64,000 nucleotides of DNA from Amoebophrya sp. A120 (Eukaryota > Protista > Dinoflagellata): assembly GCA_905178155.1 (NCBI GenBank), contig CAJINV010000003.1:9369979-9433978 (forward strand), in the 5' to 3' direction. Made by a program: the position numbers and the translations under genes. Position 1 is the first letter of the stretch. Every line of letters starts with the position of its first letter. The notes below the pieces were generated by a model, which worked only from the letters and a program-made list of their open reading frames with translations, did no database searches and was not told the origin of the DNA. This document shows positions 2,988 to 47,211 of this stretch, in pieces.

Positions 2988-5900
2988 TATCCCAAACAAA
3001 AAGACAGGTAGGGCATATTTTTGAAAGTAATGCAAAAAAAATGATAAGCAAACGAACAAGCACTGCCTAAGCAGCAGGCTATGGGCTCGCTCATGACAGA
3101 TATTTAGTTTCGTGGGAATTATTATTTGTGCCCAGCCTGTCTTTTTCTGCGGGATAGATCGGGTACGGCAGAGGAAGCAACGTACTACGGTACGAAGACG
3201 AAAGCGACGGAGAACCAATCCTACAGTGATCCTCCGCGTCGTTCATCGTCCTCGCAAGCTGTGGAAACGCCTCTGTTCAGTCTGCGCATGTACTACTCGG
3301 GTTGGGAGAATGCGAAGACCGGCGAGGTGGCGGCTAGTTTGTCACGGTCCTACCTGGTAGGAGCACCTGATAACGAGGTGCTGGAACGGATCATGTACAT
3401 GCGATCCCGAAAGACCGAGAGCAAGGCTGCCACTATCTTTTCTCCTGGCAGCGGGGGGGACGCCCCCGCGCGCTTTACGCAGGACAACACAACGAGTAAC
3501 CGCACAAGCGTGACAATGGTGAACTCAGTCTCGTATTTGGACACACCGATCTCACCCGCCGAGTTGGAAGGACTGGGCCTTCTTGTTGTGCCATCGAGCG
3601 GATGCTGGATTGAAAGGCCACCGCGCACGGAGTCGTGGCCGCAGACGCTCGCTTGTCACTGGCGGGAGTCTGCGGATGTGCAAGGGCTCCTTTACGACCT
3701 TGACAACGCTAAGGATTCCAGGGTGAAGTTTCTGCAGACGAATTTCGCACAAGAGTATGTGAACAGAACGCGAGTACCGACGCGGAGCTTCCTGCAGGAA
3801 AGCCGCCCGGTATCGGTGTGGGTTCAGATCGCTGAAGAACTGGTGAGTACGCAGCAGCAGCTTGTTTTCAGTCGTATGCCAAGCGGGGCGTTTACGCGCG
3901 ATCGCGTCTGCGTAGAGCAGGAGCCGTGCTTGGTGACGGTGGAAATCAGTGCGGACTCGCCGGCGGGATTCCTCCACGACGCGGTGTACTCCTGCCTGTT
4001 CAGCAGCAGTGGGGGTGGCTGCGCGGCAGATTCGATGGAAGCCGGGCCGCTGCTCGTGGAAAGTAACGCGGGGCTGACGGAGACCTACGCACTCGACCGG
4101 TCGGCCAGCCAAGGCAAGTGCAGCTTCGTGTCCCGGGCGCGGTACGTCAGCGCAGACAAGTTGCTGTGCACGTCCGAGATCGGATTGACCTCGGCTTTGT
4201 CCGGTGCTGACGTAACTCACGTGTCCGTGTTCCATGGCCCAGTGCCGGCGAGCCGAAGTTTCAAGGACGCTGCGGACATAGCCTCAAGTGGCTACTTCGC
4301 CGGGGACTCCTCGGCGGCCACCTTATCCTGAGTAAAAACGTACCCACCCCAGAGTTGTCATGCAGATTTGCCATGACAGGAACATTTGTGACGCGCAACC
4401 CCATGACAGGCATTTTCAATCGTGTTTGGGAACTTGTAATGCTGCAAACAGGATCAGAAGGTCGATTTGTGATGCTGCTTTCCTTGCTAACTTGCACTAC
4501 CTTACGGACTGAAACTTGTCATGCGTGACTCACAAAGCTCCTAGGTTTGTGTTGCAAAATCCCCAGCCTGACTCTGGTGTGGGTACGTTTTTACTCAGGA
4601 TACACCTCGCTCGCGATTCTAGCCCAGCACCGCATAACCGTGCTGGGCATCCTTCACCTGGACCAGGTGGTGCCGGCTGTACTCGCCACCGTGCCAGCTG
4701 TCGAGATCAGCGTGAAGATCACAAAACAGAGCAGCGTATCAAATGCGAATAATGTCTGGGCCGGGAAAAATGCAACGTTTGCCATGCACATTTTACATGG
4801 CTTTGACTCCTGATGTCTGTGATGCATGCCTCAGCATCACAGATTTTGTGAGGGGGGCTTCCTGAAGATGCCTACACCGCATGAGCAATGCCCTTTCGTC
4901 GCAGTAGTAAAAACTGGACCCCTTTTGCTGTTCCACCTACAACAGCGCAGATTTTCTCAGAATCCCAATGCAGCATCACAGGATGCATCCTTCCAGACCA
5001 AGACATGTTTGCAATGCATACAGCGAGTTGTCGGAGGCCTGGCAGAACCCGGCATTCGTGGAGAGCACCGTGGCGTGCCGGTTCCGCAAGAAAATTCCGA
5101 ACAGCAACGCGGATGTGGGCAAGGATGCGAACCTGATCACGACACAAGTAAAGCTGGTTTCCTTTGAGGAGATTCTGTGCGTGGACGCCTACCACCGTTT
5201 GTTCGACTACGTTCTCAAGCAGGATGAGCTGAACGCCTCGGATGGCTTCAACGAGCACAAGGACCTGTTCTTAGATTTGGTCACTGTCGGGACCGTGCCG
5301 CAGCGGCTGTCGAACGTGTTGCAGTTGCCACTCGTCGCCTACCCGCGGCTTCATCAGGTTGAGCCGTCCATCATTGGCGTGAACGACATCTCGGAGGCCG
5401 GGTTGAGGCCGTTGAGTGCATTTCCCTATCGACTGATTGTCACCGGTGTTGGGGTGCCGAACACGCCGGATGCGTGCTGCCGCTTCGTGGTCTCCAACCG
5501 TCCTCAGGGTAGCAACCAGGGCCCGGTGGCGCCCATCTTCACACCCGCGGTCTGGCGCTCCACCACACAGATCGCCTGCGACAAACCCGTGTTTCCGCTA
5601 GCGGGGGCACGGCTGCAGCTCGAGATTTCGCCCAACTGCAAGCAGTTCGTGACGGCGATAGCCGCCGGCGAGCCAAATTACGACAAGCTATTGCCCCTCT
5701 CCGAGAAGCCGTCTGCTTCCGCGGTTTTGAATTCCGTGCTGGAGCTTCAAGTGGTGCAGATTCCCTTCCTGAAGTCGGTGTATCCAACGCAAATTGTGAG
5801 CGTGAGCGCAGGCGCGCCACTGCGTCTGGAGGGCGAGGGGCTCAGCAACAGCGCCATCCGCCTGCGGGTGGGCGGAAAGATGCTGTCGGGCATCCGGATT

Positions 5901-8900
5901 CACAATGACACGGTGATAACCGCGCTCGCACCCGCGCCGCCCATGCGGAGCCCCGAGGTTTCGCAGGCACACTACCACCTCGATCTGTCGTTCGACTCCG
6001 GCATCAGCTTCTACAAGACCAGTTTTTTGCTCTCTTTCCAACAGAACCACGCGGTCTGGGGGATCGAGCCGCGCATCGGCGTTGCAGGAAGCGCGAGCGG
6101 TGGCCAGATTACGATCAGTCTGGTCGGGCACTTCAACTTTGACACCTTCGCTACCTCGCTCGGTCCGGAAGAAGGTGCTGTCGCGCTGCGTCGGTCCTTC
6201 GACTCGCTGATTGACGCGTCGGCGACGAAGCGGATCATGGTTGACGGAAAATTGTTTGTGATTCACGTACCCAACATTTTGCTCGGGGAACGTATTCAGG
6301 GCTTTACTCTGGAAGGTCTTCGCGTCTTTGATCAGATTCCGGAGGCGGTGCCGACCGTAGATATCGCCGGGGACAAGGGCTTGCTGATGTCAATCACAAC
6401 GGGCGACCAGCTGCAGCTGTACGACATAGCTTCGACTGTGCGTCTCTCACAGTTGCACTTTTCTGTTGCCGAGAGCCCAGGGCAGATGTCAAACACGACA
6501 TACGGTAGTAGCTCATCTGGCGATGCTGGCAGCAGCGATACCGAGGGCAACAACAGTTCTGCAAATGCAACAGAAACCGCGGCGCAGAACGCGGCAGCAG
6601 CTGAGCCGGAAATAATCAGCTACACGTCGGAATGGAGTGTATCGGGTGTGATGATGAATTCCCTGCAACAGGCAAAAGAACCGTTGCAGCGAGAGGTTCT
6701 GGAGGCGAGTGGGAATAAAACTCGCTTGTACGTCCGAACCTACGCGGCAGTTTTCTACCGTGAGTACAACGAAACGGATGCCTTGACCAACATCTCGTAC
6801 CAGACGAAGTCTCTCGACCTGTATCACATAGAGTGGAAATTAAATCAGACCGCCTTGGAGCTAGCGCAGCAGGTGCAGCAGCGCGCCGGCAGCCAGCAAA
6901 GCCTCGAAGCGCACTGCGATGAAGGAAACACGACGGCGAGTGTTTTTTGTGGGAACGAGACAAACGCAACTGGCGCAGCAGAAGCGGCCGCGGGAGCAGG
7001 GACGACAGACGGCTCCGCGTCGCAAGCGGGGACCAACCTTCACGTTGTGGAGATCATTTTCCAGCAGCAGCTGAATCTGACGGACGAACTAGGGGAGCAG
7101 CGTCCGAGCTATGTGGCACTGGTGCCCAACCTGACCCACGTCGTTGCGTACCGAGTCGGCGGGGAGCTGCGGGTATACAATTTCGACCGGCCCGCACGCG
7201 TTGCAACTATAGAGCAGGTCGGGATGCGGGCTGTGGATGTGGAGTACTACGAGGGTAGCCGCTTTCGCGCCGCGTTTTCCTTTGGTCGGAAAGCCGAAAG
7301 CTGGATCGTGGAAAGTGACCCCGCGTTGGGCACCGACGCCACCTCGCAGTACGCGTACTTCTACGGGGGGCACGCAGACGATATCACTGCGATTGCACTC
7401 GGGCCAGGCTATTGCCTCACCGGCTCGAAAGACACGACCACGAAGCTCTGGCGCGACACGGGGTCCATCACTGCTTCGTTGTTCGGGCTGCACCGCACAG
7501 CGATCACCGCCGTTGGGTTCGTGCAGATCGGCCGGGACTTGGAGTTTGTCACGAACGACGCCACACAGATCGCCTTCTGGGGGTTCCCCCAGAAAGTCCG
7601 CGACAGTGCGGCCGCGGACCTGAGTACGGCCGCCTGCCGCTTCTTGGCGCCTCCCATCGACGCCGCCTCGGGCACAACCACCCTGGTGTCTGCCGTGCAG
7701 AGTGCGGTCGTCACGAGAACGAAGGTGTATTGCTACACCGACCCAAACACCCTTACCTTCAGCGACGGGATCGCCCGCCACGACTACCAGGTCATGCTTG
7801 GGCGACCTCTGCAGATTGAAGTTGCCTACTACTACAAGCAGGCTGACCGAAAGTACTTGTCGCAGTTCGTGCCGGTAGCCAAGGACTTGGGTTTCCGTTT
7901 TGTGTTGCCGCCAAAAATCATGGACATGACTCCCGATTGGGTGATGATCAATCGCCACCCGAAAACGAACTACGTAATTCTGCCGGACGTGGCGTTTCGG
8001 GTGCGCGTTATGCTCAGCGATAGCATGGCCGTTTGGCCGAGCAGCAACACCACGTGCAAGATTACGAGCACCGGCGCCGATGGCACAACCTACTATCTTC
8101 CCACTAGGTGGCCATCGCGGAGCGTGTGTCTCTGCGGACCCCTGCGCGACATCCACCAGTTTCCTTCAGCTAACGCCCTTCGCCTGGAGTTGTCTCCGGA
8201 TTACCAAAACCTGTTCGCGGTGCCGTTCTTGGTGAAGATGTTTGAACGCCCCACCTTCGACACAATGACCACATCCGCGGGCCGGCTCCTAGCCGACGGC
8301 AATGGAGTGATAGCAGGGGTTTCCCTGCATACGCCGGACTGGATAACCATCCGGGGGAGCAACTTTCCGCTCACGAAGTCTCCGATAACCGTCACGTTTC
8401 CGCCCGGGTACTGGGCGAACGCATACTGGCGGAACTCGACCACGCTCGAGTTTTTGAGCCCCGTGACGAAGAAGCCGGAGTACCGGTTACCCGTGTGGAT
8501 CGCTTTCGGGGAAGCGAAAGCCATGAAGACGCCGTTTCTTCTGGATCTGATTGAGACGCCAACCGTCCGCGCGTTCGAACCGGCTTACTTGTTTCCAATC
8601 ATGTCACCCACAGGCGGCGACAGCGACTTGACCCACGCCGTCGCCGCGCGGCTCGGTACAGCGGAGGCCAACCGGCGGCAGCTGACCATCTACGGAAACT
8701 TTTTTGACCACCACAGCTACTGCGCGTTTCAAACAACCTCGCGAAAGCACAATGTGAAGGCGGTCTTGGTCTCCAAGAGACAGATCACCTGCGAAGTTCC
8801 ACCGCTTCCTGTGTCCGACGTGGGTGCAGACGCAGCCGACCGCGGAACGAGCTCGCCGACGACAATCGAAGACGGAGCCGCGAGTTCGTTGACCGGCGAA

Positions 8901-11900
8901 CAGTACTGTCTCGCCGAGCAGCAGGGGCGGGTGCAGCTGCAGCAGGCCCTGAACTTACGAAACTTGCTTTTCTTTTCCCCGTACCCCGAAAGCCTGCTTG
9001 CGACCTATCCGCGCCAGCGAATGGAATCGCAAGAGAAAAAGTTCACCGTCCTGGAAGGACAGAACTGCGCCGAGATTCTGCAAAACCACGCAGATCTGGT
9101 TGAGGGAAATGCCGGGAACGACACGGTGGCTGAGGCGCTGGGCAACAACGGGTCGTCGAATGACACGGGCCTGCTGCAGCTTCATCTTGCGACGAATCAC
9201 ACCCTTAATTTGACCGCCACCGTTGCGGCACTACTCGGCTCGGCAGATGCGATAGCCGCAGTGTTGAGTAGCACGGAGCAACTTGCCGCTCTGTGCCTGC
9301 GGGCCAGTGACTTGGCGCGTAACATGAGTAATTATCGACTTGAAACTCAGTACTACGATGCACTAATGTACCAACTGCAGCGCGGTGTGAACGACGCGGA
9401 GACCGGCTGCCGACAGGCGACGGAAGCTCGTGCACAGGCGGCGCTGAGTGACTTCACGAATGGGCGGCTCTTCTTCGAGGTGCGGAGTGAGCGCTTGCTG
9501 CCACTGTCGAAGCATGTGCACATCAGTGCAAGCGCCAAGTCGCTCAAGCTGCACCTGCCTATTCTGGTCGAATCGGTGACGCCGGGTGCCGCGCCGGTAA
9601 CCGGCGGGACGCGGCTCGTGGTAAAGGGTCGCAATTTCGTGCAGATTGCACCGACGTACTGCGTGTTTCAGTACGCCATCTTCACTCAAGCCCGCGTCCT
9701 GAATACGACACACTTGACGTGCCAGAGTCCCTTTTCGAACCGATTCGGTAACTTGCAGCTGCACATATCCCTGAACCGACTCCAGATGAGCGAGAGCTTC
9801 ACGTGGTTCACAGTTCTGCCCGAGGTGCAGGTCAGCGTGGCGGCCGTCTCGCGGGGGTGTTTTGCGGAGAGTCCAGGAGACGTCATCCGTGTGGACGTGC
9901 TGCTGAAGGAGCAGAGTGCCCGGACGTGGGCCAAGTACCGAGACCGGGGCGTTCTTTGCCGGTTTGTCAACGAGGACACCGGATATTTGGATGACCAGGA
10001 GGCAGTGTCGGCGGCACCCGGAAAAATTGACGAAGTGCATATTTTCTGCCGGTGTCCTGTGTACCGCGGGCACCAGATTGGGCAGCGGCTCTCCCTGCAA
10101 CTGCAGGATACGGAGGGCGTGTGGCAGGATGCGTTGGGGGAGATGCAAGTCCTCGCGCGACCCTTGGTGACCAGCGTGAGTCCGCGATTGTGGATCGCCA
10201 ACAGCACCTACCCCCTGTCAATAGAGGTTCGGGGTACCAATTTCCCACCCGACGTGGAGCTCAAGTGCACATTGGAAGACAGCGAGAAGCACCCGGACGC
10301 GACGCCTCTGGAGGCGGTAAAGAAGATGGAAGCGAGCCTCTGGGAGGAAGTACAGAGGCTCTCACTCCGCTGCCGCAATCAGCGGGATGAGCGGCAGGAG
10401 GCCTCCGGGGCGGCGCCGCCTTTGGCCCGGTTCGGGCTCTCCGAGGGAATGCGCGGGACCGCAATGCCGTACGATCGATACCGGCTACCGAGCGGGGTTC
10501 TGAAGAACGAAAGCGCGAACGTCTCGCAACTGATTGAGTTTGGGGGGAGTGTGGATTTGGATTTCTGTCAAGCGTACTTGGACGCCGAGAAGGAGTATCT
10601 CGCGTTTGTGCATCGGACGGACCTCTGGTCCGCCCACGGCTACTATCAGGACAACAGCACGGGCGACGGATTTGCGTTGCAGGACCAAAACGTGCACCAC
10701 ACGCGGAATTTCTTCGCCGCGTCCGGCTACGCGGCGCAGCGGCCGCCGCTCCGCGAGTACGCCAGCCGCGTGATGCACGTCAAGGCCGAGTGGCACTCCG
10801 CCTCGATGTTGAAGTGTGTGGTCCCTCCCGACCACGCGGAGAAACTGCGCACGGCGGGACTTGTGAATCGCTATGTAGAGCTGGCTGTGCACCGCCATTT
10901 TTCCGATGTGCGCCCCCCTCGGCAGACGTTCGGGCAGATCGCGGCGCTTCACAAGATTCGAATTGGCGACAACATTCGGATTTTGGAAGTCTCCCCGCGT
11001 GCGTTCACGCGCCAGAGTTTCGACTTGGTGAACGAGCAAAGTCGAGAAGATCAGATTTCGCTGCGTGCGACCTTGTCCAAGTCGGCCATCAGGTCCCTGC
11101 GCTTAGCTACCGCGTTAAACTGTCGCGTCCGATGGGAGGTGGACACGCTTGCGCCGGCGGTGTTCCCCGGCGTAGTTTCGAGCGACACCACGGTGACCTG
11201 CCTGTTGTCCAGCTCTGCGCTGGAGGTCAATCTCCGAGGGTATTTCTCGCTGCAGATCGACAGCAGCGAAACGCTTTCGAATGAATTGGAACTCCACTTC
11301 GTGGAGCAGGTGTTCTCCCCCTCGATCTCGCCGACGTCTGTGCCCTCCTTCACGCCCGGCCGAGGCTTCATCATCTCAGCCATGTTCCTCTCTATCCGGC
11401 ACCTGCGCGTTCTGCGGGATCTTCCGATCTTCTGCGACTACGGTCCGGAGTATGAGGCTCGGGAGGCAGTAATGCTAGATTACGAATCTGTCTTGGGAAG
11501 CAAGTTTAGGCAGGTTGTTGGGCGGCCAATTCGAAACTCCACGCACGGCTCTGACCGGAGCTTCCGCATCACCGGGCACGACGAAATCTTAGTGGATACA
11601 GCCGTCGACCGTGTGCGATGGCAGTGCCTTGGTCCAGTTTCAGGGTTTCTACCTCGTATAAGCGGCGCGGAGGCCCTGGAAGTGAAGCTCGTACTGGACG
11701 CGTCTGCGCAGCGAGGGCTCAATCCCGCACTCACCAACAGGCCCACTCAGATTCACGTCACGGGTCTGCCTGAGATCGCTACCCAGGAGCCTTTCCTGGC
11801 GGCACGGGACACCAGCGTCCTGTTGGAGGCAGTGGTGCCGGACGGTTACAATCCTTTCGTCACTACGACTGCGATCGGCAGCACCGAACGGCGGGTTGAG

Positions 11901-14900
11901 GTGTACTGCGCATTTTTGCCCTGCGGAACTACGTTCGTAAAACGCACCGTGACCGCAGGGATCCGGATTCCGAGCAAGAACACCGCGGATTCGGGCTCGC
12001 GACGGATGCTGGTGTCTTGTCCGGTTGCAAGCCTGAGTTTCACACACGTGCGGGCGGGGCTGTACGGTGAGGAGCAGTGCGCTCTGGAGATCTCGTTTAA
12101 CAACTTGGACTTCTCCAGCCGGTTTGAGTACACGCTTGCCGCGCATCCGGTGGTGCGGAAGTTTGGGACGTCGCGCGGCGTCGTGAGCCTCGGCGGGGTG
12201 CTGCAGAGTGGTGGCCCCGTCATTTTGCGCGGGTCCTACTTCGGCAACCGGGCCGCACTCGCATGCACATTCGCGGGAAGCGACGGCTCCGATATTCCGG
12301 GGCAGGTGGTGGCGCGCGGCCATACGCACGTGGAGTGCTTGGCGCCCAGCAGCAAACCGCTTGGATATTACAGCCTGAACCCCCTCAAGCAGGAAAATGC
12401 TCTCATTACCTATCGCCACAGTCAGTTTGACAGCCTTTCCGCTCTCCCGAGTGCGTCTGACGCAACGGGGGCACCTCGGTACCGAAGGCAGGTCGCGGTG
12501 TTCTTAGCTGCGCAGTCATCTGGACTAAGCGCACAGTTGGTAGAATATGAACAGCCGCACGCCCGGTTGGCGAGAAACGGTACCTTCGGGGCGCAGGTCT
12601 TGTCCCAGGAGGCCCGCGATAAGTTTTATGAGCAATACTTTCACGCTGCGGACACGGAGTACGAGAAGAGACTGAAGCAAGCGCTACGCACCGCTCGCGT
12701 AGGGGATGCGAACTCCTTTGTGTACGTGGACGTGTTCGACGCGCCGTCCATCGCGCGCCTCTCGCCAGATCGGCGGAACAGCGAGCAACGCGTCCTCATG
12801 CTGCACGGAAGTAATTTCCCCGAAGATGTTGTGCGCACTTGCAATTTCTACTCCGCCGCGGTTGGCGCCAAGAGCTTGCATTACCTGGGGCAGAGTGGCG
12901 GTTTGCGCTTGTCCGCAGCCGACATTTCCTGCCAGTTTCCCGCCGGAATGTCGCACGTTGCGGCGGATTACCGCGTAAGCGTCGCCTTTGACAGTGGCGT
13001 GGTTGCGCAGCCGTCGCCTTTCCTCTCCTCCTCGACCTTTCGCATGCAGTCGACGCTTGCGTTTTATAAGGTAACGCCGTCCGTGCTAACCCCAAAAAAG
13101 CCGAGCTGGGTGCATGTGGTGGATTCCACAGTGCGCGCTCCCGCGGGCACAAAAATACTTTGTCGGTGGAACGTGAATGGTTACGAAAAGGCGGCTGCGG
13201 GCGGGCGCATGCGAATGACCCTCGTGAACTCTATCTTGGACGGCTACGTCTCCCACGTCGCCGCGGGGACAGATTCGGTCATGGGGCGGCTTGTTCCTGA
13301 TAGAAACACCGTCGCGGGGGGGCTTACCTCCGGGTCTGCGAATGGGACGCACGGACTCCAGTCGGACGACCCTCTCGGAAGTCACGTAAGCGATGCCTTG
13401 GAAGACCGCAGACAGGTAAACTTGAACTGTCCTTCGCCGTACATAAACGAGGGACGCATGCGTTTTCGCGAATTTGCGTACCGGGGCCTCTTAGAGGTTG
13501 CCCTGGACACCGAAGTTGTCAACTTTCTGCCTATCCACTGGCTCCGTTTCGAAAGGGCGGTCCGGACGCTGCAGTTGTCACCAACGTACTCCAAGTATTT
13601 CCCAGGCTCGGCGGTGCGGCTCGATGGAAAGTTTGTGCGGGCAGAGACAGTGAAGTGCGTTCTGTTCGCCAAGCGTCAGACACGCCAGGTAGTGACACCA
13701 ACTTCGGTAAAGGCAGTGGAGAATGAGGGGACTGCTGCTCAGGATGTACGTATGCTGGTGACCTGCGTCCTTCCCAAAGATCTGCAGCCCGGCACCTGGC
13801 GGATAGAACTGGATAACGCGGCAGCCGGGGCGGAAGCAGGTGCGCCTTCGCTTGCCGCATTCGGCGATACGCGGGACGCTCTTGCGCTGATTGTGGTACC
13901 GATTCCGGAGGTGTCAGCCGCAAGCCCGCTGGTGTATCCGGTAGGAAGCTCCGCGTCCCTGGTCCTAGGGGGCAACCGGCTCGGTCTCACACTGACGAAG
14001 ACGTTTGACCCGCGCTGCGTATACACCAGTATCCCAGGCGCGAGTCGCGCGGTGCATTTCCGTTCGACTGTGATGATTGCGGACGATTCACATGTCCTCT
14101 GCTTGCCGCCTCCCGTGGATTTCCTTGGGAAGATGCACGTCTCTGTTGCTGTGCACGGTATGCAGTTTGCGAGCACGGTTGTTGTGGATTTTGTCTCCTC
14201 CTATCTGCTGGACTACAACGGGCGGGCCGTCTCGCTGATCCAGGCGAACACGCAGAACGAAACCGTGGCACACCCGCTCGGTGCCCGAGTGTCCACAAAT
14301 TTAAGAGTAAGGTTCCCACCACGATTCGAAAGTGACGCCTCCACGGCCCGCCACGAGACAACGCTGCAGCCGTGTCTGCGAGTCCAGAACCAGTTGTACG
14401 CAGGGGTGGCGTATCAAATGTAAAAATGTCTGGGTCTGGAAAAATCCGACTTGTCATGCTGATTTTGGATTCTAAAAAAATCTGTATTGCATGAGCAGCA
14501 AAGAGAGTCCAAATTTTGCAGCGCGGAAAGAGCATTTGTCATGCGGAATAGGCATCAGGAAGCCCTCTAAAAATCTGTGATGCTAGGGCATGCGTCACAG
14601 ACTTGAGGAGTCATGCGAAATGTGCATGACAAACCCGGCAATCTTCCAGACCCAGACATTTTTACATTTGATATGGCGACTCCGAAAGCGGTGCTGTGCC
14701 TGGAAGAGAGCGGCGCGCTGGCCTGGTCAAAGATTCAGGAGGCTGTGCTCTTGAGTCCTGATCGGAATGTGTACAGTTTTTCGTCTCAGCTCCTTGCCCT
14801 GTTAACCAGGGTGGAATTCCGGGACACGTCTGAGATCGGAAAAATGGCTGTCGCCGTCGCGGGCCGACAGCTGGTCTCCTCTGTCACCTCTTTGTTCGTC

Positions 14901-32900: not shown

Positions 32901-35900
32901 TTGCAAGAACTCCTGCAAAAGTAGTCTCCGCCTAGCCCACTGACTGCTTGAACCTTGCGGAAGCAGAAAAAAGAGGGCGGCAAAACTGCAGCGGCTTTTT
33001 TCCTCGCGGTTCCCCGGCTCCGACGGATGGACAAATGACAGAATAAAAAACAAAAAGCAAAACGAGGGGAGCGGGTTGATGGGGTTTCGACAAGGAGCCC
33101 AGCTGTGTTCCTCCTGTGCTGGATGTGGGCTTTCATTAATATTCGCGATAGGCCAGCCCAGCGGCTTTTTTACCGCCCCCCATGCGAAGAGGTCTCCTAC
33201 TGGAATGCTAAGCGTCCGCAAGTGTTTCGAGACACAACTTTTGTGCAATTTCTCAGCGACTTTCGCTTCCGTGTGTGTAGGTGGAAGTTGCCTGCGTCAA
33301 TTCAGTCGAGAATTGGCGCTCGAAGAAAAGGCGCGGGGGCTCTGGCAAAAGCAGCGCGTTTTTGAGCCTGCTGCCCCGGCGGGGCCTTGCCGTATTGGAT
33401 GGCCTGCGACCTTTCAGCGCGAAGCGCTCGCGACTTCTGGCCACAACTTGTGTCGTCAGCCGTGCCCCCGCGAGGGTGGGGGAGCAATATAACCCTCGGC
33501 GGTCGTGTGGCACGCACCGCAGCGCACTATTCAGGCGCACTAGTAGCTTTGGCCCGGCAGCCGCAGCTATGCGGGCTGTGCGATCGCAGGACGCACGAGC
33601 GGCATCCACAACTGCTACTTTTTCAAATTTGGCATATCATGTTTGCGCGGATGCCGGATGGTGCGTGGTGTCTCGTGTCTATGGGTCTAAACAGAGAGGC
33701 CCTGACGATCTCCGCATGCCAGATTAGTAGGCGCTCCCCGGCGCGTGCCTCAGCGCATCGCCGCAGATGAAGTTCGTCATCTTCGGCTCCGCACAATCTC
33801 AAAAAAACGCACGACAGGCCAAGCGCACGAGCGTGCCCTACCGCGCAAATGCCGACGCGACTGCTTTGGAAATGAGCATTCCGCTGCACGTCGGGATGCG
33901 CGCGTTGTCGACTGACAACGAATTTGTCTTCATGATCAAGAATACGTATTTTGGCGGACGAAAGACCGTAGTGATCGGGCACCTACCCTACTGGTCCAAC
34001 TGTCGTGGCTTCGGGCGCGCAGCTCCTCTCTGGGCTATTTTCGAGCAGGGGCGTACCTGTGAGTGGGAGGAGGCGCCGACGGTGATTGGGTCAACAGACA
34101 TAGGGGCGCAGGCCTTCGGTGATAAGTGTTCCCTGTACCAGCTCGAATGCATCATGGACGAGATCCCCAACAACAAACTTTCCGACCCTCGATGGTTCGA
34201 GGCGTCGACAGGCACAGTACTGTTTGAGCTTCTAAAGACCCCCATCGGGAACGGGAAATTCAACGAGCTCAATATCCTGTGTAAAGACGTCCACGCCCAT
34301 CACCCAGAGTTATGATGTGCCTATGTATTTAAAAAAAAAAAAAAAGTTATGATGCAATTTGTGATGCGCAAGCATCCCTATGACAGGCATTATCAGTCGA
34401 TTTTTGGAAATTGCGACGCTGTAAACTGGATATGGATAAGCAGATGGATTTGCAATGCGGAGGTCCTTGCTAACCTGCACTAATACCATACGGCCTGCAA
34501 GAACTTGTCATGCGTGACTTGCAGCTACTCAGTCTGTTTGTGTCATGCGTGACTTGCAAAACGTCTGGTCTGGATTTGTGTTGCAAAGTCCCCATAACGG
34601 TGACTCCGGAGTGAGGACGTTTTTACACAGGATACTCAAGGAACGCGTCCTTCCCTTTACGGCCGACGAAGTGGTGCCCGTCACCGTGCAGCAGGGCGGC
34701 AGTATGGCGGGAGAGCTTCCCGGCCAAGTCCTGCTGGTGGTGCAGTATTGGCAAAGGAGTGAAACGGAGAAACAGCTTGTGAAGGGCGACGTATACTACA
34801 CGGATTTCGCCATTCCCTCGCAACGGCAGCAGCGGGGCCAAGACCACGTCGACTACAAGCTCGATATCCTGTACCTGCCCATGAGTCACCGGGACGTACT
34901 GATCAATTTCGTGTTCTCGCGGCTTTTTTACACGATCACCTACCAGATCATCGGGCTCACGGCTGTTTTCATGGTTTTCGTGAATTGGTGCTACCATCAG
35001 TTTTGGAGTGAGAGCCGGGTTATCCAAGAAAAAAACTGTGTTAGTGTAACTTTCTTTGGCTGACAGCATCACAAATTTGCTCTACACGACAGAGAAAACC
35101 TGTCATGCGTGGCTTGTAAGGGAAAATACACATGAAAAAGGGACTTCATGGCTGTGTGGCATGACAGGCGTAACTCTGTTGCATGTTCTGCATTACAGAG
35201 TTACACTTACACAGTGTTTTTCTTGCATACGGGTGTCTCCGCGGTTACTGGACAAGCGGTACTTTTTCAGCGTCTTCCCGCCGGCATATCGCGGGTTCGC
35301 GCTTTCCATGCTGCCCTGTCTGCCGCCACTGCTTCTCCTGGTTTGGGTTGTGAGGGGGCGCATGATTACCTACGACGAGGGTAGCACGGTTCCCTGGCGT
35401 AGCTGCCCTGAGGGGGTCGTGCCCGACGAGTGTTCTGTCGGGATCCTGGACGAGGGCACGCCCTTCAACGCCGGCGATTCGACCTGGGACCCGGAAACAG
35501 CGCTTACGCAGAAGACCTTCGGCGAACGACGAACCGGGCGCACGGGCGTGACGCTGATAGCAATGGGCGCATACCTAGTCATCATCTCCCTGCGGTGCTT
35601 TGTGCCCACCACGATTTCCAAGTTTTACGCGGACGAGTCGCCGCAGACGATCGCGGCTACGCAGCTGCTTACCAAGGCGGTGGCGGGAATGATGGGCACG
35701 AAGGGCGCCAATGTGCGAAAGTTGCAACGCGAGGCGAGCGTGGACGACCAGAGAAAGAACAAGATGGCGAAAAACGTGTACAACGAAGAGAGCGACGGGG
35801 AGGACGATGAGAGGAACCTGCCCATCTTCATCCCGTACATCTGGAAGCGATCGTGCACGGCGCTGATGATGTTCGGCAATGGACTCCTGATGACTATGAT

Positions 35901-38701
35901 TATCGAGTTCTCGTTCTCGGAGTTCTTTATGAAGAATGTTTGGCTGATGCAGGTCGCGATCTACATTGTAAAGCTGATCGAGCAGACCGTGTTCTCGCAG
36001 TTCATTCAGGAGGCTATTCTCCTGGTGCCGATCAATGCCGTGATTATGGTCGTGTCGAACCTGACTACGCTGGCGGCGGAGGACCTGCTGGAGTTCATGA
36101 TGGCATTCTTCGTGAGTATCGCACTGCAGGCGATTGACCGGCTTTACGTGTCCTCCAATCAGGACTTTTTCTACGAACAGGCCGTCCGCGGATGGAACCG
36201 AGTGAAGGAGAGCTACCGGTGGCTTACCTCGGGGGCGCGGTTCGTCGACGTGAACAAAGTTCTGGACCAGCTGGACGTCGCCCTCAGTTCGGATGACGAA
36301 GGCGAGACTGCAGCCAATCGGGATCCGAACAAAAAGGAATTCGTTTCCAAAAACGAGGAAGCGGCGCAACCCGAGGACATGATCGCGTTCATGTGCGGAT
36401 ATTCCACGGATCTGGTGTCCACCTTTCTCCTTCCGGTGTACATCCTGATCACGTGGTATGTCTACGACGAGAGCCAGATCTTAGTACGGTACAACATTCG
36501 AGTGGATGCGACCTGGGAGTACATCAATTTCTATGCGGTGGTGGTGTTCTTCAACCACGCAGTGGACATCTTCTGCATGAATACGCTCGAGCTCTTCCAC
36601 GGGTGGCGATTGTGCGACTACTTTGAATTCTGCGCCTACCGCTTCAGCAGTCGCCCGGTCCGCTGGAAGGGGTTAGGGGAGACCATCGACGAAACGGTGG
36701 CGCCCAGTCTGCGGAGCGTGGATTTGGCTTGTTTCAGCGAACAGTACTACTTCATGAACTTCACGTGCTGTCTGGGCATGCTGGTGTACATTCTCGGGTT
36801 CCAGATCATCCTGCAGAACGACTGGAACGCGTTCTCGGATCCGAACTCATCGCTCACCTTCATTCTCACCCTCGCCTTCTGCAAGGTCTTCCACAAAGTG
36901 ACCTCCACGATTGCGGACTACCTGGAGATTTGGTACGTGCCGCACACTGACATGGAGGTTTCCCTTCTGCGAGGCTACATCGACATCCGCGGTCTGGACG
37001 AAGAACTCCGGGACATTATGCTCTGTGAAACCGTCCCCGCCCCATAGTTGTCATGCAAATCTGCATACTTAGTAAAATATTTTCGAATTTGTGATGCTCC
37101 AATCAGCATAATAGGCAAGATCTGTGATGCTTCTGAACTAGCTAAACAGGACTACATTACGATGCCAAACCTTTCACGCGCAACAACCAAAGCTGGGCGA
37201 TTTGTCTAGCAGATTGGCAATCTTGACTGCAGCGCCCCGACTAGAATAGTTGAACGGTGAAGAAGGGGGCAGGGGAAAAAAAATTTGCGATCTTGTTGCC
37301 GGGGCGGGGACGTTTTTACTCAGGATAGGCACAGAGGCAGACTTTGTGCAGAACCGGCGGGAAATCAAGCCGCCGGCATGGTCCGTGCTGCACGATTGGA
37401 AGCCTCCCCACGCCAGCGACGTGCTCGGACTAGACCGGTACCGGACTGCCTTCATCCAGGAGAACCAGCTCTGGCTGCAGCACGTGTTCGCAGATCTTCT
37501 AGACGAGGAAACGAACCTGCAGTACCGGCGTACATTATTGAAATCCTTCACGAAGATTTTAGGCGAGATCGAGCCGCAGTACTACTCGCCCTATGGCGTG
37601 CCTCCGAAAATGGTAAACGGGCAGATCGTGGTACCCACCGGCGCAGCCGCGACCAGTGGCACGAGCGGGTTCGACTTCGACACAGCGCCGCCTCAGGAGC
37701 TGGTTGCCCACCAGGTTTCGCGGCGCATGTTCAACATGACCGAGACGCTCGCGCAGGAGATTTTGCGCATGTGGCTGGCGCGGGCACGGTTCCTCACATG
37801 GCTGGAGGATGTGTCGTCGCACTTGACCCCGCACTCGTACCACAAGAAAGAGATTTGCGAGTTGTGCAAGAGTAACTACGACCTTTCCGTGGTGCCCGTC
37901 TACAACATGGATCACCTTGGGAGTCTGTACCGGTTGCAGCGCGACTACTCCCCGATCTTCAATACCCGGATGTGGAACCACTTCTACAAAACCTTCACGC
38001 CCACATGCACGGTGTGCCAGAAGTGTGCGCAGTACTACAGGAGTCGCAACTTGGACATCCCGGTTGACGAGCGTCGTTTCATGCGAATGGTGCCGTCCTC
38101 CGACATGAGCAGTCACGCCATGCTGCAGCGCTCCAAAACGGAGCTCACGGTGGTCGACGGGCTCACGAGGACGCTGATCGAGTTATGGTATGAGTGGGCC
38201 TGTCGTTTGACCAAAGGAGAGCCGCCCGAGAGCTTCTTGCCAAAGTGGGGATTCGAGGCACCGACACGACCAAATTTCTTGGATGCCATCGCGGGTGCCG
38301 ACACAAGGGCGCTACTGGCGGACTCTGACGAGGAGGAGAACGAGGAGCTGAATCGCGAGGAGCGAGAAAAACAGCGCGAGCTCGCCCGAAAGCAAAAGCT
38401 GCGCGAAGAATGGTCGAGCAGTGATGAGGAGGACGAAACGAAGAAGTTGCCCGGGGAAGTCAAATTTCCTGTGGTGGACGTGTCTGCGCAGGTCGCGGCC
38501 ATGGTACGCCTGTGGCATGACCTTGCGGTGCGGAATCTGCGTCACCCTGTGCTGAGCGACTGGATCGACCACGTAAACGAAAGTATTCCAGTGGACGTCG
38601 CGCGCCCGGCTGGGTTTCGCCAGCGGTCACAATACGTTGCGGTTTCAACGATTCTCGATCGCATGCAGAATCAGCAGGCGGCGGACCAGACAGGCAGGTA
38701 G
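3..38701 (+). CDS. Giant multi-exon gene, 5' end outside the window: IPT/TIG-repeat + GCC2/GCC3-like cysteine-repeat + multi-pass membrane protein, at least 10,961 aa. Exons: 3-2987, 3162-4323, 4608-4736, 5026-14411, 14679-28300, 28612-28649, 28943-30149, 31632-31694, 31870-31915, 32183-32392, 33767-34272, 34640-35020, 35235-37016, 37333-38701
   Basis: The frame is open from base 3, so ATG39 is probably internal. Removing 11 TIR elements (each plus one 5-bp repeat) and two GT-AG introns joins the + ORFs without stops. Exon sum is 32,886 nt = 10,962 codons, ending at TAG 38699-38701. Motifs: IPT-like (P..GP..GGT.V.V.G.NF...C.FG), CP.G.YC repeats and hydrophobic helices near the C-terminus. Confidence 0.85.
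2988..3156. mobile_element. Introner-like intron, family B (169 bp)
   Basis: Left end TATCCCAAACAAAAAGACAGG; right end reverse complement TATCCCGCAGAAAAAGACAGG. Direct repeat GATCG at 2983-2987 and 3157-3161. Removing 174 nt gives PQGS|GTAEE in frame. Confidence 0.9.
3162..4323 (+). CDS. Giant gene exon 2
   Basis: Core of ORF 3126-4331, bounded by two TIR elements. Confidence 0.8.
4324..4602. mobile_element. Introner-like intron, family C (279 bp)
   Basis: 32-bp TIR TATCCTGAGTAAAAACGTACCCAC(C/A)CCAGAGT with 1 mismatch. Direct repeat CACCT at 4319-4323 and 4603-4607. Removing 284 nt gives SAAT|SLAILAQH. Confidence 0.93.
4608..4736 (+). CDS. Giant gene exon 3 (129 nt)
   Basis: SLAILAQHRITVLGILHLDQVVPAVLATVPAVEISVKITKQSS, in frame at both junctions. 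Confidence 0.8.
4737..5020. mobile_element. Introner-like intron, degenerate family A (284 bp)
   Basis: Left TATCAAATGCGAATAATGTCTGGGCCGGGAA and right TTCCAGACCAAGACATGTTTGCAATGCATA are decayed versions of the family A TIR. Direct repeat CAGCG at 4732-4736 and 5021-5025. Removing 289 nt gives KQSS|ELSEAW. Confidence 0.88.
5026..14411 (+). CDS. Giant gene exon 4 (9.4 kb; IPT/TIG-like repeats, short WD40-like stretch at ~7362-7580)
   Basis: Core of ORF 4968-14423. Contains PGAAPVTGGTRLVVKGRNF..TYCVF and GHADDITAIALGPGYCLTGSKDTTTKLW. Confidence 0.9.
14412..14673. mobile_element. Introner-like intron, family A (262 bp)
   Basis: Perfect 30-bp TIR TATCAAATGTAAAAATGTCTGGGTCTGGAA. Direct repeat TGGCG at 14407-14411 and 14674-14678. 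Removing 267 nt gives LYAGVA|TPKAVL. Confidence 0.95.
14679..28300 (+). CDS. Giant gene exon 5 (13.6 kb; IPT/TIG repeats, kringle/FN2-like insert, cysteine-rich repeats)
   Basis: Core of ORF 14613-28346. Clear IPT repeats at ~20950-25140 (e.g. PPFGTTEGGTIVQLEGSHF..LTCKFG). CP.G..C repeats at ~25149-27825. Confidence 0.9.
28301..28606. mobile_element. Introner-like intron (306 bp, diverged TIR)
   Basis: Left TAGCAAAGTGAAAAAAACCCCACCCCATAT; right reverse complement TATCGTAAGGAAAAAACCCCCTCCCCATAT. Direct repeat CCGAG (28296-28300) / CCGAA (28607-28611). Confidence 0.85.
28612..28649 (+). CDS. Giant gene 38-nt micro-exon
   Basis: Lies between two TIR elements and reads LP(S/N)KMLSSFSNKCIA|YHQQ. 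It links the frame of ORF 14613 to that of ORF 28852. Confidence 0.75.
28650..28937. mobile_element. Introner-like intron (288 bp)
   Basis: Left TACTGCAGTGAAAAATGCCCCCA; right reverse complement TATTGCAATGAAAAATGCCCCCA. Direct repeat CGCGT at 28645-28649 and 28938-28942. Confidence 0.9.
28943..30149 (+). CDS. Giant gene exon 7
   Basis: Core of ORF 28852-30228. Coding-like composition ends at about 30150. Confidence 0.8.
30150..31631 (+). other. Probable canonical GT-AG intron (1482 nt)
   Basis: GTATTC at the start and TTTTTCCTCGTAG at the end. Splicing gives DLET|YADPVVLKN in frame. Confidence 0.7.
31632..31694 (+). CDS. Giant gene 63-nt exon
   Basis: YADPVVLKNTAFTLNLYAEYE, between an AG acceptor and a TIR element. 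Not in the ORF track. Confidence 0.75.
31695..31864. mobile_element. Introner-like intron, family B (170 bp)
   Basis: About 55-bp imperfect TIR (TATCACACAGAAGAAAACTGGCAGGGCATATTTGTAATGCAAAAA...). Direct repeat TACGA at 31690-31694 and 31865-31869. Similar in ends and length to the 2988-3156 element. Confidence 0.92.
31870..31915 (+). CDS. Giant gene 46-nt micro-exon
   Basis: EIDFKVEVQILNGLFV, in frame between two TIR elements. Confidence 0.78.
31916..32177. mobile_element. Introner-like intron, family A (262 bp)
   Basis: Same 30-bp TIR and same length as 14412-14673. Direct repeat TTGTC at 31911-31915 and 32178-32182. Joins GLFV|ADRLMF. Confidence 0.95.
32183..32392 (+). CDS. Giant gene exon 10
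   Basis: Core of ORF 32132-32422 (ADRLMFERS...ELPYNMP...WAFLNWSP). Confidence 0.75.
32393..33766 (+). other. Probable canonical GT-AG intron (1374 nt)
   Basis: GTACTG...CCGCAG, phase 0, joining LNWSP|MKFVIF. Exact sites are unverified. Confidence 0.6.
33767..34272 (+). CDS. Giant gene exon 11
   Basis: ORF 33767-34315 (HLPYWSNCRGFG...WFEA), truncated by a TIR element. Confidence 0.78.
34273..34634. mobile_element. Introner-like intron, family C (362 bp)
   Basis: TIR TATCCTGTGTAAA(G/A)ACGTCC. Direct repeat CTCAA at 34268-34272 and 34635-34639. Interior aligns by eye with 4324-4602. Joins FNEL|KERVL. Confidence 0.92.
34640..35020 (+). CDS. Giant gene exon 12 (first predicted TM helix)
   Basis: Core of ORF 34545-35063, including FYTITYQIIGLTAVFMVFVNWCY. 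Confidence 0.8.
35021..35229. mobile_element. Introner-like intron, family D (209 bp)
   Basis: 31-bp TIR TATCCAAGAAAAAAACTGTGTTAGTGTAACT with 3 mismatches. Direct repeat CGGGT at 35016-35020 and 35230-35234. Joins SESR|VSPRLL. Confidence 0.92.
35235..37016 (+). CDS. Giant gene exon 13 (multi-pass transmembrane region)
   Basis: Core of ORF 35056-37047 with many hydrophobic segments. Confidence 0.85.
37017..37327. mobile_element. Introner-like intron with family C-type ends (311 bp, diverged)
   Basis: Right reverse complement TATCCTGAGTAAAAACGTCCCCGCCCC; left TATGCTCTGTGAAACCGTCCCCGCCCC. Flanks GACAT / GGCAC match 3 of 5. Removing 316 nt restores the frame. Confidence 0.85.
37333..38701 (+). 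CDS. Giant gene last exon (predicted cytoplasmic tail with CxxC pairs and an acidic/charged stretch)
   Basis: Core of ORF 37250-38701, containing CELC...CTVCQKC. AT-richer non-coding sequence follows the stop. Confidence 0.82.
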
Positions 38702-42354: not shown

Positions 42355-45300
42355 ATGGATTGGCAATTTTCCGTACAGCAAGGCCTGCGGTGCACGGTGA
42401 TCTTGCAAGTTAATCACACTCGAGCCTACCAGGACCGCAGCCCCGCAACGTCGCAAGCCAGCGGCTTTTTCATTTACCGCCTCGAAGAAGAAGGTCTTGG
42501 AGTGTTGCTTACAAATCGGCATAGTGCGACCTTGGGTCCGTGTACGATTTACGCCAGTTTTGAGAAGCACGAGCAAGTGAAGTGCGACGTGCTCTACTCT
42601 GACCCGTTGCACGACTTTGCATTCTACGTCTTTGATCTGCAGCAGTTACGTCGCACGAAATTGGGGCGGCCGTTACCGCTTAATGCCGCTGGTTTGCAGG
42701 TTGGTGTCGACGTGAAGATTGTGGGCAATGATGACGAAGAACGAAACCAGATCTTGAGCGGAACAGTGGCGAAGATAAATCGAAACCCGCCTTGCCTCGG
42801 AGACTACGACCAGGATCTGCATACCTTTTATGCGTTGGCTGCCTCGAGTACGAGCTGTGGTAGTTCCGGGTCGCCGGTGTTGAACATAGCTGGGGAAGCG
42901 ATTGCGTTGAACACTGCGGCAGCGAACACCGGATCGGGAAGCTACTACTTGCCTTTGGGGAAAGTAGTGGAAGTTTTTAAGTATTTGATAAAGCTCTACG
43001 ATCACGAGACGTGCCGCGTCAAAAGCATTAACAGTCAGAACCTTGGAATTGAGAATAAAAGCAATCCAGACGAAGATCATGAAACAAGCGATAAGCCCTG
43101 GCACCGCAAACCCATCGCAGAGCTGCTTAGTGATGCACCACCGAAGCGCGGTACCTTGGACTGCATTTTTAATTGGGAGGCTATCGAAGAAGCTGCGATC
43201 AATTGCGGGCTGGATCGAGCGGTGAATCTCACCGCTGGGAATCTCACTGCAGCCGCCTTCCGTCCCGCGGATGATCGTGCTCCGATCCCTAAAAATCGCG
43301 ATTATAAGGCCGGTGGTAATTTTTTTGTAAGTGGCGCGTCGTCCTCGTCCTCCGGGTCCGCAACTACGACAGGTGCTACGGATCATTCTGGTGCAGCAGC
43401 CAGCCCGAGCGCCGAGCTGCCGGCAGTAATGGAGCCCTCGAGAGCAACGCCGATGGGGTCGTTTTTTAGCCCTGGTGGCGCAGCAGGAGCAGCGCACGCG
43501 GGGGTCTTAGTGGTTGAGGAGGTGCTGCCCAAGTCGCCGGCGTCTGATTTACTGCAGGCAGGTGATGCGCTTGTCGAGCTGGACGGCATCAACATGGTTG
43601 ATCAAGGCCTAGACGCCTTTCAAGTTCTTGAAAGTATCCTTGACGCCAAGGTGGGGACGGCTGTCGAAATGGCTGTGTGCCGGTCGGGGCGTCTGGTCAA
43701 CGTGACCCTGCCGGTAGAAGACTTGTTTTCGCGCTGCATTCCGAGTGTTCTCTTGGAGTTCGGACTCGGTTGCTTTCACGACGTGGCGCAGGCAGTCGCA
43801 TTCCGACACCACATCGCCCAGAAAGGCGTGTATGTGGCAAAGCCCGGGCATCTTTTCGCACAGCTGTTTGACGCGGAAACGGGTGGCATCATTCGTGAAA
43901 TTAACGGAATTGCATGCGACACGGTGGATCAGTTCGAGCACCGGATGGCGAACATTCCTGACGGGGACCGATTTCTTGTGTCCTACATAACTTTTGATTC
44001 GGGGGGTACCAGGAACTTTCGTGAGCTAGTGTGTGGACCTATGTCACGCCAGTGGCAGCAGCCAGTCGTCTGGGAGCGACAGGGTCACACGGGGGGATCT
44101 AATTGGGTGTGCCGCGATGCACTCGGCACGTCTGCTCCTACTGAGCGAGACCATCATGTTGCGCCGAATCGAAGCGCAGCGGTTGAAGCGAGTGGCGCCG
44201 TCGTCAAACGTGGTCGATCGCCGCTTGTCTCGTCCAAAGTTGGACCTAAACCTCCTCTCCGTAATGGAGCATTGCAGTGTCGTAACCGGAAGCGTCTACC
44301 AGCGGTTCCTCTTCGAGATGCAGAAGATGCCAGCGACTCCGAGGACTCGGGGAGTGACATTGACGGGGAAGGAAGAGGACTCGGGTCGCTCTGCAGCACG
44401 GACGGAAGCAACTACTGTGCTGGCAAGGTCAACAATGTCTCGTCCCCCTCTGGAATCGACGCGCAGCGGCAGATCGATGAAAGTGATGCGCGCATCCTGC
44501 GCGACGCATTTCGAGACACTCTTGCTGTGGTGGAATGGAAGATTCCACCTGAGATGGCGGTCGGGCACACGGAATTTGCGTGCGCACACCGGCGCGGCAT
44601 CGGCATAGCTGTTCCTCCAGGAAACGTGTTTCTTTGCCCTCGAACAGTTGTTCCGCAGGCCATTGCGTCCGTTACGGTTCAGCTGCTAGCACCCGAGGGT
44701 GCACAGCACTCGTCCCATTCCAAGAAACAATTGTTCGAAGCCGTCGTCGATTTCGTTCATCCGACGCAGAATTTTAGTCTGGTCCGTATTTTACCCCCGG
44801 GCGCCAGCAGAACAATCTCTGGAGGCGAGCCGTCGCTTTCAATCGCTGACAAGCGCAAGCTGTACGGCTCGGACGCGAAATGCAGTGAGAGCACAGAGTG
44901 TGATGTCCTCGCGTGGAATCGAAATACTCTTACCGATCACGCGAATCAAAAGGGTGCAGGCAAGGAAGTGAAGATGATGCCACCGCTCCGGCCGGCGGCG
45001 TTCCAGTCAGAAGAATGGAATGCCAGCTCCGAGATGTCGAAAAACGTGCGAAAGTACCTGAATCTAGACTCCCCACCTGAGGGTAGCACAGGTGCTTGCC
45101 TTGCATTCGCGCCTGCTTCTGCTGGCTCTATCAGAAGTTCTGATAGCGCGACAAAAAACGCCGTCGCCGGCAAGGCAGGTTCATCTGCAGGAAGCCTCGT
45201 CGCTGATGGCAGCAAACTCAAGGCTGCGGACGGGATCCAGGGAGAGGATGCGGTTCTGGTTACAGTAACGGATGACCTGCAGATCGTACCCACGCGGAAT

Positions 45301-46954
45301 TTTGAATTTCTGTGCTCACAGCCGACGGTTTTAGAAAATGTATGGACACATCCTCCCCGCTGGCGTGCGCGAAATACTCTTGTCACACCACTCGATTGTG
45401 GACAGGATTTTCTTGGAGGAGTCGTCGTCTCGTTGTCTCAATTTCGTGCTGCAGCGGAGGAGGTCCACAGTTTGCGACAGCACAGCGGCGCACGCAAGGC
45501 ATCACCAGAGGGCCACAAGATGAACCACAAAAGTATGAAAGCCAGCAGAAATAAGCATGACGTCAGCAGGTCGAAAAAACGAAAGCTGGATGTTGATACC
45601 ATCGTCGATGGAGAAAAACAAGGCGAAAGCAAAGCACTGACAAATGATACCCTGCTCAGGAACAATACAACAGGTAGCGTCTCCGGAAACTACAAGTTGC
45701 GAATGTTTAACGATCGTGCAGGAACCGCCCAGGGCAGCAGCCTTTCAAGCGATGAACTTCTGTGGAACTTTACGGAAGCGCTGCCACTCGTGAGCGCTGT
45801 AGTTTTTCCGTTTCCGTATGTTAGTAGCGAGACAGCAGAAGGACCCGTGGAGCACGCGGACATGGAGGAAAACGAGGACGGTGAGCAAAGCCGTACCGCT
45901 TCAGGTTTGGCCAGTAACGGGTTTCCAGACACCGTCGGTGTGGATTATCTGGCCATTCCAGTCAAGCAATTCATTGGATGGATCTCTTCTCCCGATGAAA
46001 AATACGAACAACTCGGTACACCTGAGCGTGATCGCATTTGCGGACTTCATGGTGGAGCGTGTGACGTTAGCGGCAGCAACAGCATGACTCCGCAGTGCGA
46101 GCGGGCCCGCGAATGGCCGGACGCCGCCCCCCGCGGACCGTCACTAGCCCGGAACAGCTCAGACTCGAGTGACAGCAGGGCATCGTCGGGATCATCGACT
46201 AAACCACATTTGGCGATGAAATCGAGCCTGCCCGAGCCGGCTTCGCGCGACTGCATTCCTGCGAGGGCCCGCGTCGGGGAGACTAACGAAAAACTCTTGC
46301 GAAGTGCTGACTCAGAAGTGGTGGCAAGAGCATTAGCCTCGTCTTCGTCACGCCCGTGCATCCGGAGTGGCGGACTCGGCGTCGATCGGCCTGCAGCGTC
46401 GAAATGTATGGCCTTGGGTGAGTCTCCTTCGTCGCGCGCCCCGGATCTGCAGCCGAGGGACGGCAGTAGTGCTGCCTCCTCAACAGCTGCGCACGAACTT
46501 TTGTCGTATAATTCACGACATCTTCGCTTACTGCCGTATGCAACACGGTATTGCGTCCCTGTGCTTGATGTGGAGCTGTGCGCTTTCGAAGCAGCCACGC
46601 TTGAAGATTGGCCAGAGAAGCTTCGTCCCCCGGCATCATTCTTCAGCCGACACAAGGCGTCTAGCGCACTGAAAGTATGTTCGGGAGCATCTCGGGCAGA
46701 AAATTCGGATGCGGCCGAGTACCCGCAGACCGGCGATATCATGGTGAAGTTACAGAGTCGGAATTTCCGCAGTGTCATCGACCTGGAGAACGCGCTCTGG
46801 AGTACGAAGAAGAAGACGTTGACTGAGACGGGACTTCGGGCGGATGTCTACCGCAAAGGCGTGCTCCGCAGAGTACTACTACAGCCAGAGTTTCGTAAGT
46901 CCGATGGCGCGGAGCGCATGGTCATTTTTCACGGTTTGGTAGTGGTGGAGTCAC
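42355..46954 (+). CDS. NMA111: Nma111/DegP7-like HtrA serine protease, exon 1
   Basis: Catalytic triad motifs LLTNRH, DPLHDFAF and GSSGSPV. PDZ-like VLPKSPASDLLQAGD. Second, degenerate protease domain (VVPQA...FVHPTQNF). ATG at 42355. Confidence 0.85.
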
Positions 46955-47206
46955 TATCAAATGTAAAAATGTCTGGGTCTGGAAGAGTGCATGTTTGTCA
47001 TGCTTGTCTGGCATGACTCTTAAATCTGTCATGCACGTTGCCCAAGATCCGCATTTTTCTGTCATGCGGAGACGCAATTTGTCATGCAGAATAGGCAACA
47101 CTTACAAGCTCAGAAATTTGTCATGCTGAGCCAGCACTCGTGGCCTCCTCATGCTACGCCACTCGGCATCACAAGTTTCCAGACCCAGACATTTTTGCAT
47201 TTGATA
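46955..47206. mobile_element. Introner-like intron, family A (252 bp)
   Basis: 30-bp family A TIR with 1 mismatch. Direct repeat GTCAC at 46950-46954 and 47207-47211. Removing 257 nt opens a PDZ-like continuation. Confidence 0.94.
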
Positions 47207-47211
47207 GTCAC

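Follow-up and report, generated by a model that had tools for sequence, protein, structure and literature searches.

Two-part end motif, 5-bp target site duplication and internal repeat of introners in a 64,000-nucleotide stretch of Amoebophrya sp. A120

We analysed a stretch of 64,000 nucleotides, here called the window, from the dinoflagellate Amoebophrya sp. A120 (assembly GCA_905178155.1, contig CAJINV010000003.1, positions 9,369,979 to 9,433,978 of the forward strand). The window contains two host genes and 12 introners with terminal inverted repeats (TIRs) and flanking target site duplications (TSDs), as listed in Table 1. The introners were defined by a motif-blind search for inverted arms with a flanking direct repeat, followed by inspection of the ends. 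They measure 169-362 bp, and the GC content of the 11 that were measured lies at 38-46%, against about 59% in the surrounding coding DNA. A perfect 5-bp TSD is found in 10 of the 12, while 4 of 5 bases are alike in introner E and 3 of 5 in K. Manual grouping gave about six end families, one of them with four copies. The elements are repeated in the genome: summed contig depths reach about 96,000 and about 133,000, where unique bins have about 22, values which are not to be read as copy numbers. Eleven introners are carried by host gene 1 together with two GT-AG introns (30150-31631, 32393-33817); the homologs of this gene show an identity of only 22-36%. The protein of host gene 2 is 100% identical to an A120 protein (92% of the 307-residue query) and 64% identical to an A25 protein.

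Table 1. Features of the window, and two introner families lacking the A-tract from the independent loci (coordinates within each locus).
Feature	Position	Strand	Length	TSD or ends	Remarks
Host gene 1	3..38701	+	at least 10,944 codons		frame still open where the window begins (5' edge); IPT/TIG repeats
Host gene 2	42355..47390 (to about next intron)	+			trypsin-like / PDZ serine protease
Introner A	2988..3156		169 bp	TSD GATCG	same family as G; removal of element + 5 nt restores frame
Introner B	4324..4602		279 bp	TSD CACCT	family B/I/K
Introner C	4737..5020		284 bp	TSD CAGCG; diverged ends GAATA / AAACA	family C/D/H/M
Introner D	14412..14673		262 bp	TSD TGGCG	30-bp perfect TIR; family C/D/H/M
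Introner E	28301..28606		306 bp	imperfect TSD CCGAG / CCGAA; ends TAG.. / TAT..	missing from probable RNA contig
Exon piece between E and F	28607..28644	+	38 nt		retained in probable RNA contig
Introner F	28650..28937		288 bp	TSD CGCGT	missing from probable RNA contig
Introner G	31695..31864		170 bp	TSD TACGA	same family as A
Introner H	31916..32177		262 bp	TSD TTGTC	same gene as D, opposite orientation; family C/D/H/M
Introner I	34273..34634		362 bp	TSD CTCAA	family B/I/K
Introner J	35021..35229		209 bp	TSD CGGGT	
Introner K	37017..37327		311 bp	decayed TSD GACAT / GGCAC; left end GAAAC	family B/I/K
Introner M	46955..47206		252 bp	TSD GTCAC	inside the PDZ serine-protease gene; family C/D/H/M
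A-tract-less TAT family 1	L009 2486-2792, L014 679-985, L026 1126-1431, L072 1668-1974			5-bp TSD	internal repeat
A-tract-less TAT family 2	L036 4372-4607, L050 725-962, L090 15-255			5-bp TSD	internal repeat

Farhat et al. 2021 (PMC7789003) describe, in the part of the paper covered here, A120 introners whose ends consist of TAT, seven less-conserved nucleotides and at least three A, with direct repeats of 3-5 nt (5 bp in the legend of Fig. S19), acting as non-canonical introns of about 240 nt and forming a hairpin. Since the host is A120 by protein identity and the motif stands in that paper, the end pattern was already known, and the elements of the window are almost certainly the same introners. 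They match those in strain, TAT-N7-AAA TIRs, direct repeats, repetition in the genome and non-GT-AG removal, and no difference in kind is seen. Four points go beyond the same part of that paper: the TSD is sharply 5 bp and lies outside TA ends, two end clusters have no A-tract, 5' and 3' ends show no bias, and the elements carry an internal repeat, TGTNATGC.

The two-part motif was evaluated on the whole window. TAT-N7-AAAAA occurs 19 times, while 100 dinucleotide shuffles gave 0.81 +/- 0.85 matches with a maximum of 4. All 20 other spacer lengths between 0 and 20 gave 0-5 matches, and at a distance of seven bases ahead of A5 the triplet TAT is enriched 9.6-fold, against 2.0-fold for the runner-up triplet. 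Sixteen of the matches are element ends and two fall in an internal A-run of a single element; the remaining one, at 59710-59724 on the minus strand, stands alone, and a search for its partner end found none. In the 24 ends of the 12 elements, all of which start with TA, the information content is 1.5-2.0 bits at positions 1-3 and 1.1-2.0 bits at positions 11-15, compared with 0.2-1.1 bits at positions 4-10 and 0.2-0.8 bits at positions 16-30. The identity between families (224 pairs) follows the same layout, being 0.94 at positions 1-3, 0.32 at 4-10, 0.88 at 11-15 and 0.27 at 16-30. The motif is thus a genuine feature of the ends, and uniform decay did not produce it.

An initial annotation of this DNA had quoted nine ends from different families, with conserved positions 1-3 and 11-15 and variable positions elsewhere, and had named a single lineage with uniform decay as one outcome that would speak against its proposal. 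All nine ends were located (2988 to 47206), and both the bits and the between-family identities bear out the conserved and the variable positions; the identities also show that decay is not uniform. Its two deviating ends are found as described, GAATA being the left end of 4737-5020 and GAAAC that of 37017-37327. Several distinct families do share the pattern, but by hand grouping there are about six of them and not nine.

As an independent set we used 133 loci on metagenome contigs (L001-L133, 382 kb), which had been retrieved with the end of one family from a collection estimated to hold about 260 such stretches. None of the loci shares a match of more than 400 bases with the window, and the metagenome contigs contain the exact ends of its main family plus those of several of its other families. 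A motif-blind detector found 284 candidates, of which 73 had a TSD of 3 bp, 35 of 4 bp, 168 of 5 bp and 8 a longer one, whereas three shuffles of the loci gave 2, 1 and 0 candidates. A TSD of 6 bp occurs in 2 candidates, against 168 with 5 bp; the 3- and 4-bp classes are uncurated and appear to be partly shifted registers of the same elements. Among the 168 elements with a 5-bp TSD, 166 start with TA and 163 with TAT, and the composition of the TSD reveals no strong preference. The 166-element set includes at least one false pairing (in L029) and is biased, because 106 of its members fall in the query's own cluster.

Clustering the loci ends on non-motif positions gave eight clusters, six with an A-tract and two (seven elements) with TCAGG or TCAAA at positions 11-15 (Table 1). 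The claim that the A-tract is shared across families thus holds for most clusters and fails for two: the tract is common, not required. In window and loci together nearly all elements are 112-362 bp long, noncoding, and have TIRs and a constant TSD of 5 bp, like miniature inverted-repeat transposable elements (MITEs). A single long TAT pair, in L029 (1031 bp), was considered as a full-length element and rejected, as it consists of three ordinary elements in tandem; the other long candidates, in L024, L041 and L044, have off-register starts.

A second shared feature lies inside the elements. In a de novo word count GCATGACA was found in 20 copies and in five of the six window families, while no 8-mer exceeded 4 copies or 3 families in 100 shuffles. 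The pattern TGTNATGC has 39 copies in the window, 35 of which fall within the 3,154 element bases (shuffles: mean 0.7, maximum 4). In the loci it is present in 164 of the 166 elements, i.e. in 157 of 159 with an A-tract and in 7 of 7 without one; the copies number 542 against 8.8 after shuffling in the former and 26 against 0.4 in the latter. Its wider context in the loci elements is RRYYTGTVATGC, and its position peaks at 33-34 and 41-43 bases from the element ends. We infer that a transposase may use the repeat as a series of sites. The main text of PMC7789003 does not have the repeat; that paper's figures and Table S7, as well as Roy et al. 2023, could hold it, and no description was found in the Amoebophrya literature among the matches listed; within the literature covered it appears to be an addition to the published description of introners.

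The length of sequence lost from the transcript was determined from the reading frames. When the 11 elements of gene 1, each with 5 nt more, and the two GT-AG introns are taken out, a single stop-free frame of 10,944 codons results. Only 8 of the 177,147 (3^11) combinations of removal classes keep the gene open, and the sole uniform class among them is element + 5 nt (equally + 2 or + 8). At the junction of introner M, removal with + 5 nt gives a match of 177/177 to the annotated A120 protein P0003 and a gap-free alignment to the A25 ortholog P0004 and to distant homologs, and + 5 is therefore favoured over + 2 and + 8. In the loci 152 junctions were tested, and + 5 scores best in 37 of the 43 that were scorable. 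No placement of the cut within the TSD gives a GT/GC..AG boundary in any of the 12 window elements, and such a placement is possible in 3 of 52 loci elements.

As for probable RNA, a contig of run X3 (record 15) skips 642 window bases (28296-28937) and keeps 38 of them, so that the 604 missing bases equal (306+5)+(288+5). X3 also lacks both GT-AG introns and on this ground is argued to be spliced RNA, while contigs of run X1 run through E and F without a gap. Bin depths of 37.9, 12 and 3.96 compare with 37.87, 12.03 and 3.97 computed from the inferred exon limits, and for 34000-38000 the runs X3-X6 have a word share of 0.75-0.76, where removal of I, J and K predicts 0.754. From the piece limits there is a weak indication that the right-hand TSD copy of E is kept, so that the 5' cut would lie inside the left copy. 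Removal of E through F as a single intron was tried and rejected: the frame is lost, and the probable RNA contig keeps the 38 nt between them.

Taken together, we consider it probable that a DNA-level transposase put the elements in place, and that the mRNA loses each of them along with one TSD copy. The transposase would be supplied in trans and bind both ends, reading the terminal TA(T), usually the A-tract at positions 11-15, and in addition the internal RRYYTGTVATGC array, whose first site often lies 33-44 bases in. Insertion would be staggered by 5 bp and not strongly selective for the target; the duplication itself is observed. The frame, the homologous proteins and the one probable RNA contig indicate that element + 5 nt then leaves the transcript and the original frame is restored. 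The boundaries are not GT-AG, and cutting is probably directed by a hairpin that the two ends form. On the evidence of its TA ends, of the 5-bp TSD and of A120 family 38 in the literature, the enzyme would most likely belong to the integrase-like IS3/IS481/Ginger group. The transposase with 5-bp staggered cuts suggested in the initial annotation agrees with the perfect TSDs and the TA starts; its idea of one protein reading the triplet and the A-tract is too narrow, given the elements that lack the tract while nearly all carry TGTNATGC.

Several points weigh against this reading. Farhat et al. report, in the part of PMC7789003 covered here, no transposase in A120 and argue against a general transposase-mediated mobilisation, and none was found here, where no genome-wide search was made. 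The A-tract is missing from 7 of the 166 loci elements. The RNA evidence is weakened in that X3 is a guessed RNA run, read by the limits of its pieces and not by the junction letters; read mapping covered 12401-32400 and gave piece coordinates for E and F alone, and the raw RNA runs X10 and X11, with 3 and 2 reads mapped, add nothing either way. In the window the motif has 8 mismatches at 5' ends against 2 at 3' ends (p = 0.11), which is the direction expected of a splicing signal. The strand test on the loci requires well-paired ends, and is for that reason biased towards young elements.

This strand test bears on the splicing factor that had been offered as the alternative to a transposase. 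The end motif, and perhaps TGTNATGC, would then be an RNA signal, such as UUUUU-N7-AUA serving as a 3' pyrimidine tract in a spliceosome without U1. That U1 small nuclear RNA was not detected in A120 speaks for such a signal, as do the window asymmetry and the strong hairpin of element D (long and terminal on predicted folding, z = -10). However, the asymmetry is not significant, and it was rejected on the loci. The host strand could be assigned for 52 of the 166 loci elements, by a strand model that was right in 8 of 8 window controls, and 49 remained after three A-tract-less elements had been dropped. In these, mismatches to the A-tract number 18 at the 5' end and likewise 18 at the 3' end, and those to TAT 0 and 2, respectively. 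Seen from the mRNA, the 52 elements lie in either orientation (24 and 20, with 8 ties), and families without the tract exist. An end signal that is the same on both sides, whichever strand is transcribed, is what one would expect of a protein that works on the two ends of the DNA. The lack of a 5'/3' bias speaks for a transposase and against a splicing factor, an alternative which found no support and which we regard as unlikely, while the hairpin may play a part in splicing alongside the reading of the ends at the DNA level.

Integrases of long terminal repeat (LTR) elements likewise typically leave a 5-bp duplication, and this counts for a spread via an RNA intermediate, whether by reverse splicing or by an integrase borrowed from a retroelement, instead of cut-and-paste. 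So do the absence of a reported A120 transposase and the preference for copy-paste in the covered part of Farhat et al. (PMC7789003), and the homology of A120 family 38 to an LTR-element sequence in that of PMC12130899. Against it stand the two polarities relative to the mRNA and the symmetric TIRs with up to 30 perfect bases, and no LTR or tail was seen in the elements; we consider this route quite improbable. Descent of all TAT families from one ancestral element, the shared positions being leftovers and not a presently constrained binding site, would agree with the shared TGTNATGC repeat, which suggests common ancestry or a common protein, and with the weak alignment of interiors of several different families (z up to about +11), but is very hard to reconcile with the uneven decay at and beside the motif, which needs a constraint at some stage.

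Further features of the window were recorded. Upstream of the protease gene, at about 41800-41990, there is a decayed copy of the C/D/H/M family with the right end TAG..AAATA, whose left end and TSD were looked for and not found; it is possibly a non-intronic copy. A 666-bp element of a different type lies at 51294-51959, with ends TTAACGG, a 5-bp TSD TCATA and no TGTSATGC repeat. Removal of this element + 5 nt joins two open reading frames (ORFs) into about 1,093 codons. It begins with TTA as the A25 motif does, but continues with A-C instead of two purines; a Pfam search with its ORFs and its host gene gave no match, and a short 11-base tandem array is located within it (51690-51744). At 56370-56518 there is a direct duplication of 58 bases, 91 bases apart, and at 53822-54198, outside the called genes, an inverted repeat whose arms are 72 bases long (92%) and which contains a palindrome (54074-54123) in its interior.

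Transib elements and the RAG signals combine a 5-bp TSD with CAC termini and an A-rich tract after the heptamer and a 12/23 spacer. The A120 elements resemble Transib in the 5-bp TSD and in having an A-rich tract inward of a terminal motif, but differ in ending with TA(T) instead of CAC and in a tract that starts at base 11. Transib was rejected on the near-constant TA start of window ends and loci elements, and the initial annotation was correct in declining this assignment.

A closer resemblance is seen to the integrase-like DDE group IS3EU/GingerRoot, which in the covered part of PMC10045372 has TA..TA termini as the A120 elements do, and a TSD of usually 6 bp where the A120 elements have 5 bp. 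Membership fails because the TSD length differs, and the resemblance remains. Gozashti et al. 2025 (PMC12130899) list most A120 families as TIR DNA elements of unknown superfamily, in the part of Dataset S2 covered here (50 of its 58 rows for A120). Family 38 is entered there with '5-bp TSD, TA/TA Termini' and integrase-like homology, and is described in the covered main text as being without Ginger termini and TSDs. It is about 808 bp long with ORFs, whereas the elements studied here are 112-362 bp without ORFs, and the two are likened by description, not by sequence; a text search of that paper's supplements gave no hit to the window's end sequences. On this comparison family 38 would be the best published lead to the enzyme. 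As to non-canonical introns elsewhere, a review (PMC11282704) groups, in the part covered, these introners with the MITE-derived ones of Fritillaria, Polarella and euglenids, which are likewise elements with TIRs and TSDs, removed as introns whose ends are non-canonical, and differ in their end sequences. Fritillaria is given there as preferring AG-AC and AG-AT ends, none of which was seen in the A120 elements. Strains AT5 and Kv are reported to have canonical introns in the part of PMC12005148 covered.

A more specific proposal, which we hold as tentative, is that one unclassified integrase-like DDE transposase mobilises all TAT families. With TA ends and a 5-bp TSD it would stand between IS3EU/GingerRoot and Ginger, perhaps as the parent of family 38, and its real binding site would be the internal RRYYTGTVATGC array. 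If this is true, the array would offer a sequence key for finding the enzyme to which tens of thousands of A120 introns go back, and the elements would define a new transposon subgroup.

The end pattern alone adds nothing beyond the 2021 description. The strict 5-bp TSD outside TA ends, the unbiased A-tract and the shared TGTNATGC array make both the mobility of the introners and a splicing without GT-AG boundaries and without U1 more testable, and the same three results define how a full-length partner element should be expected to look.

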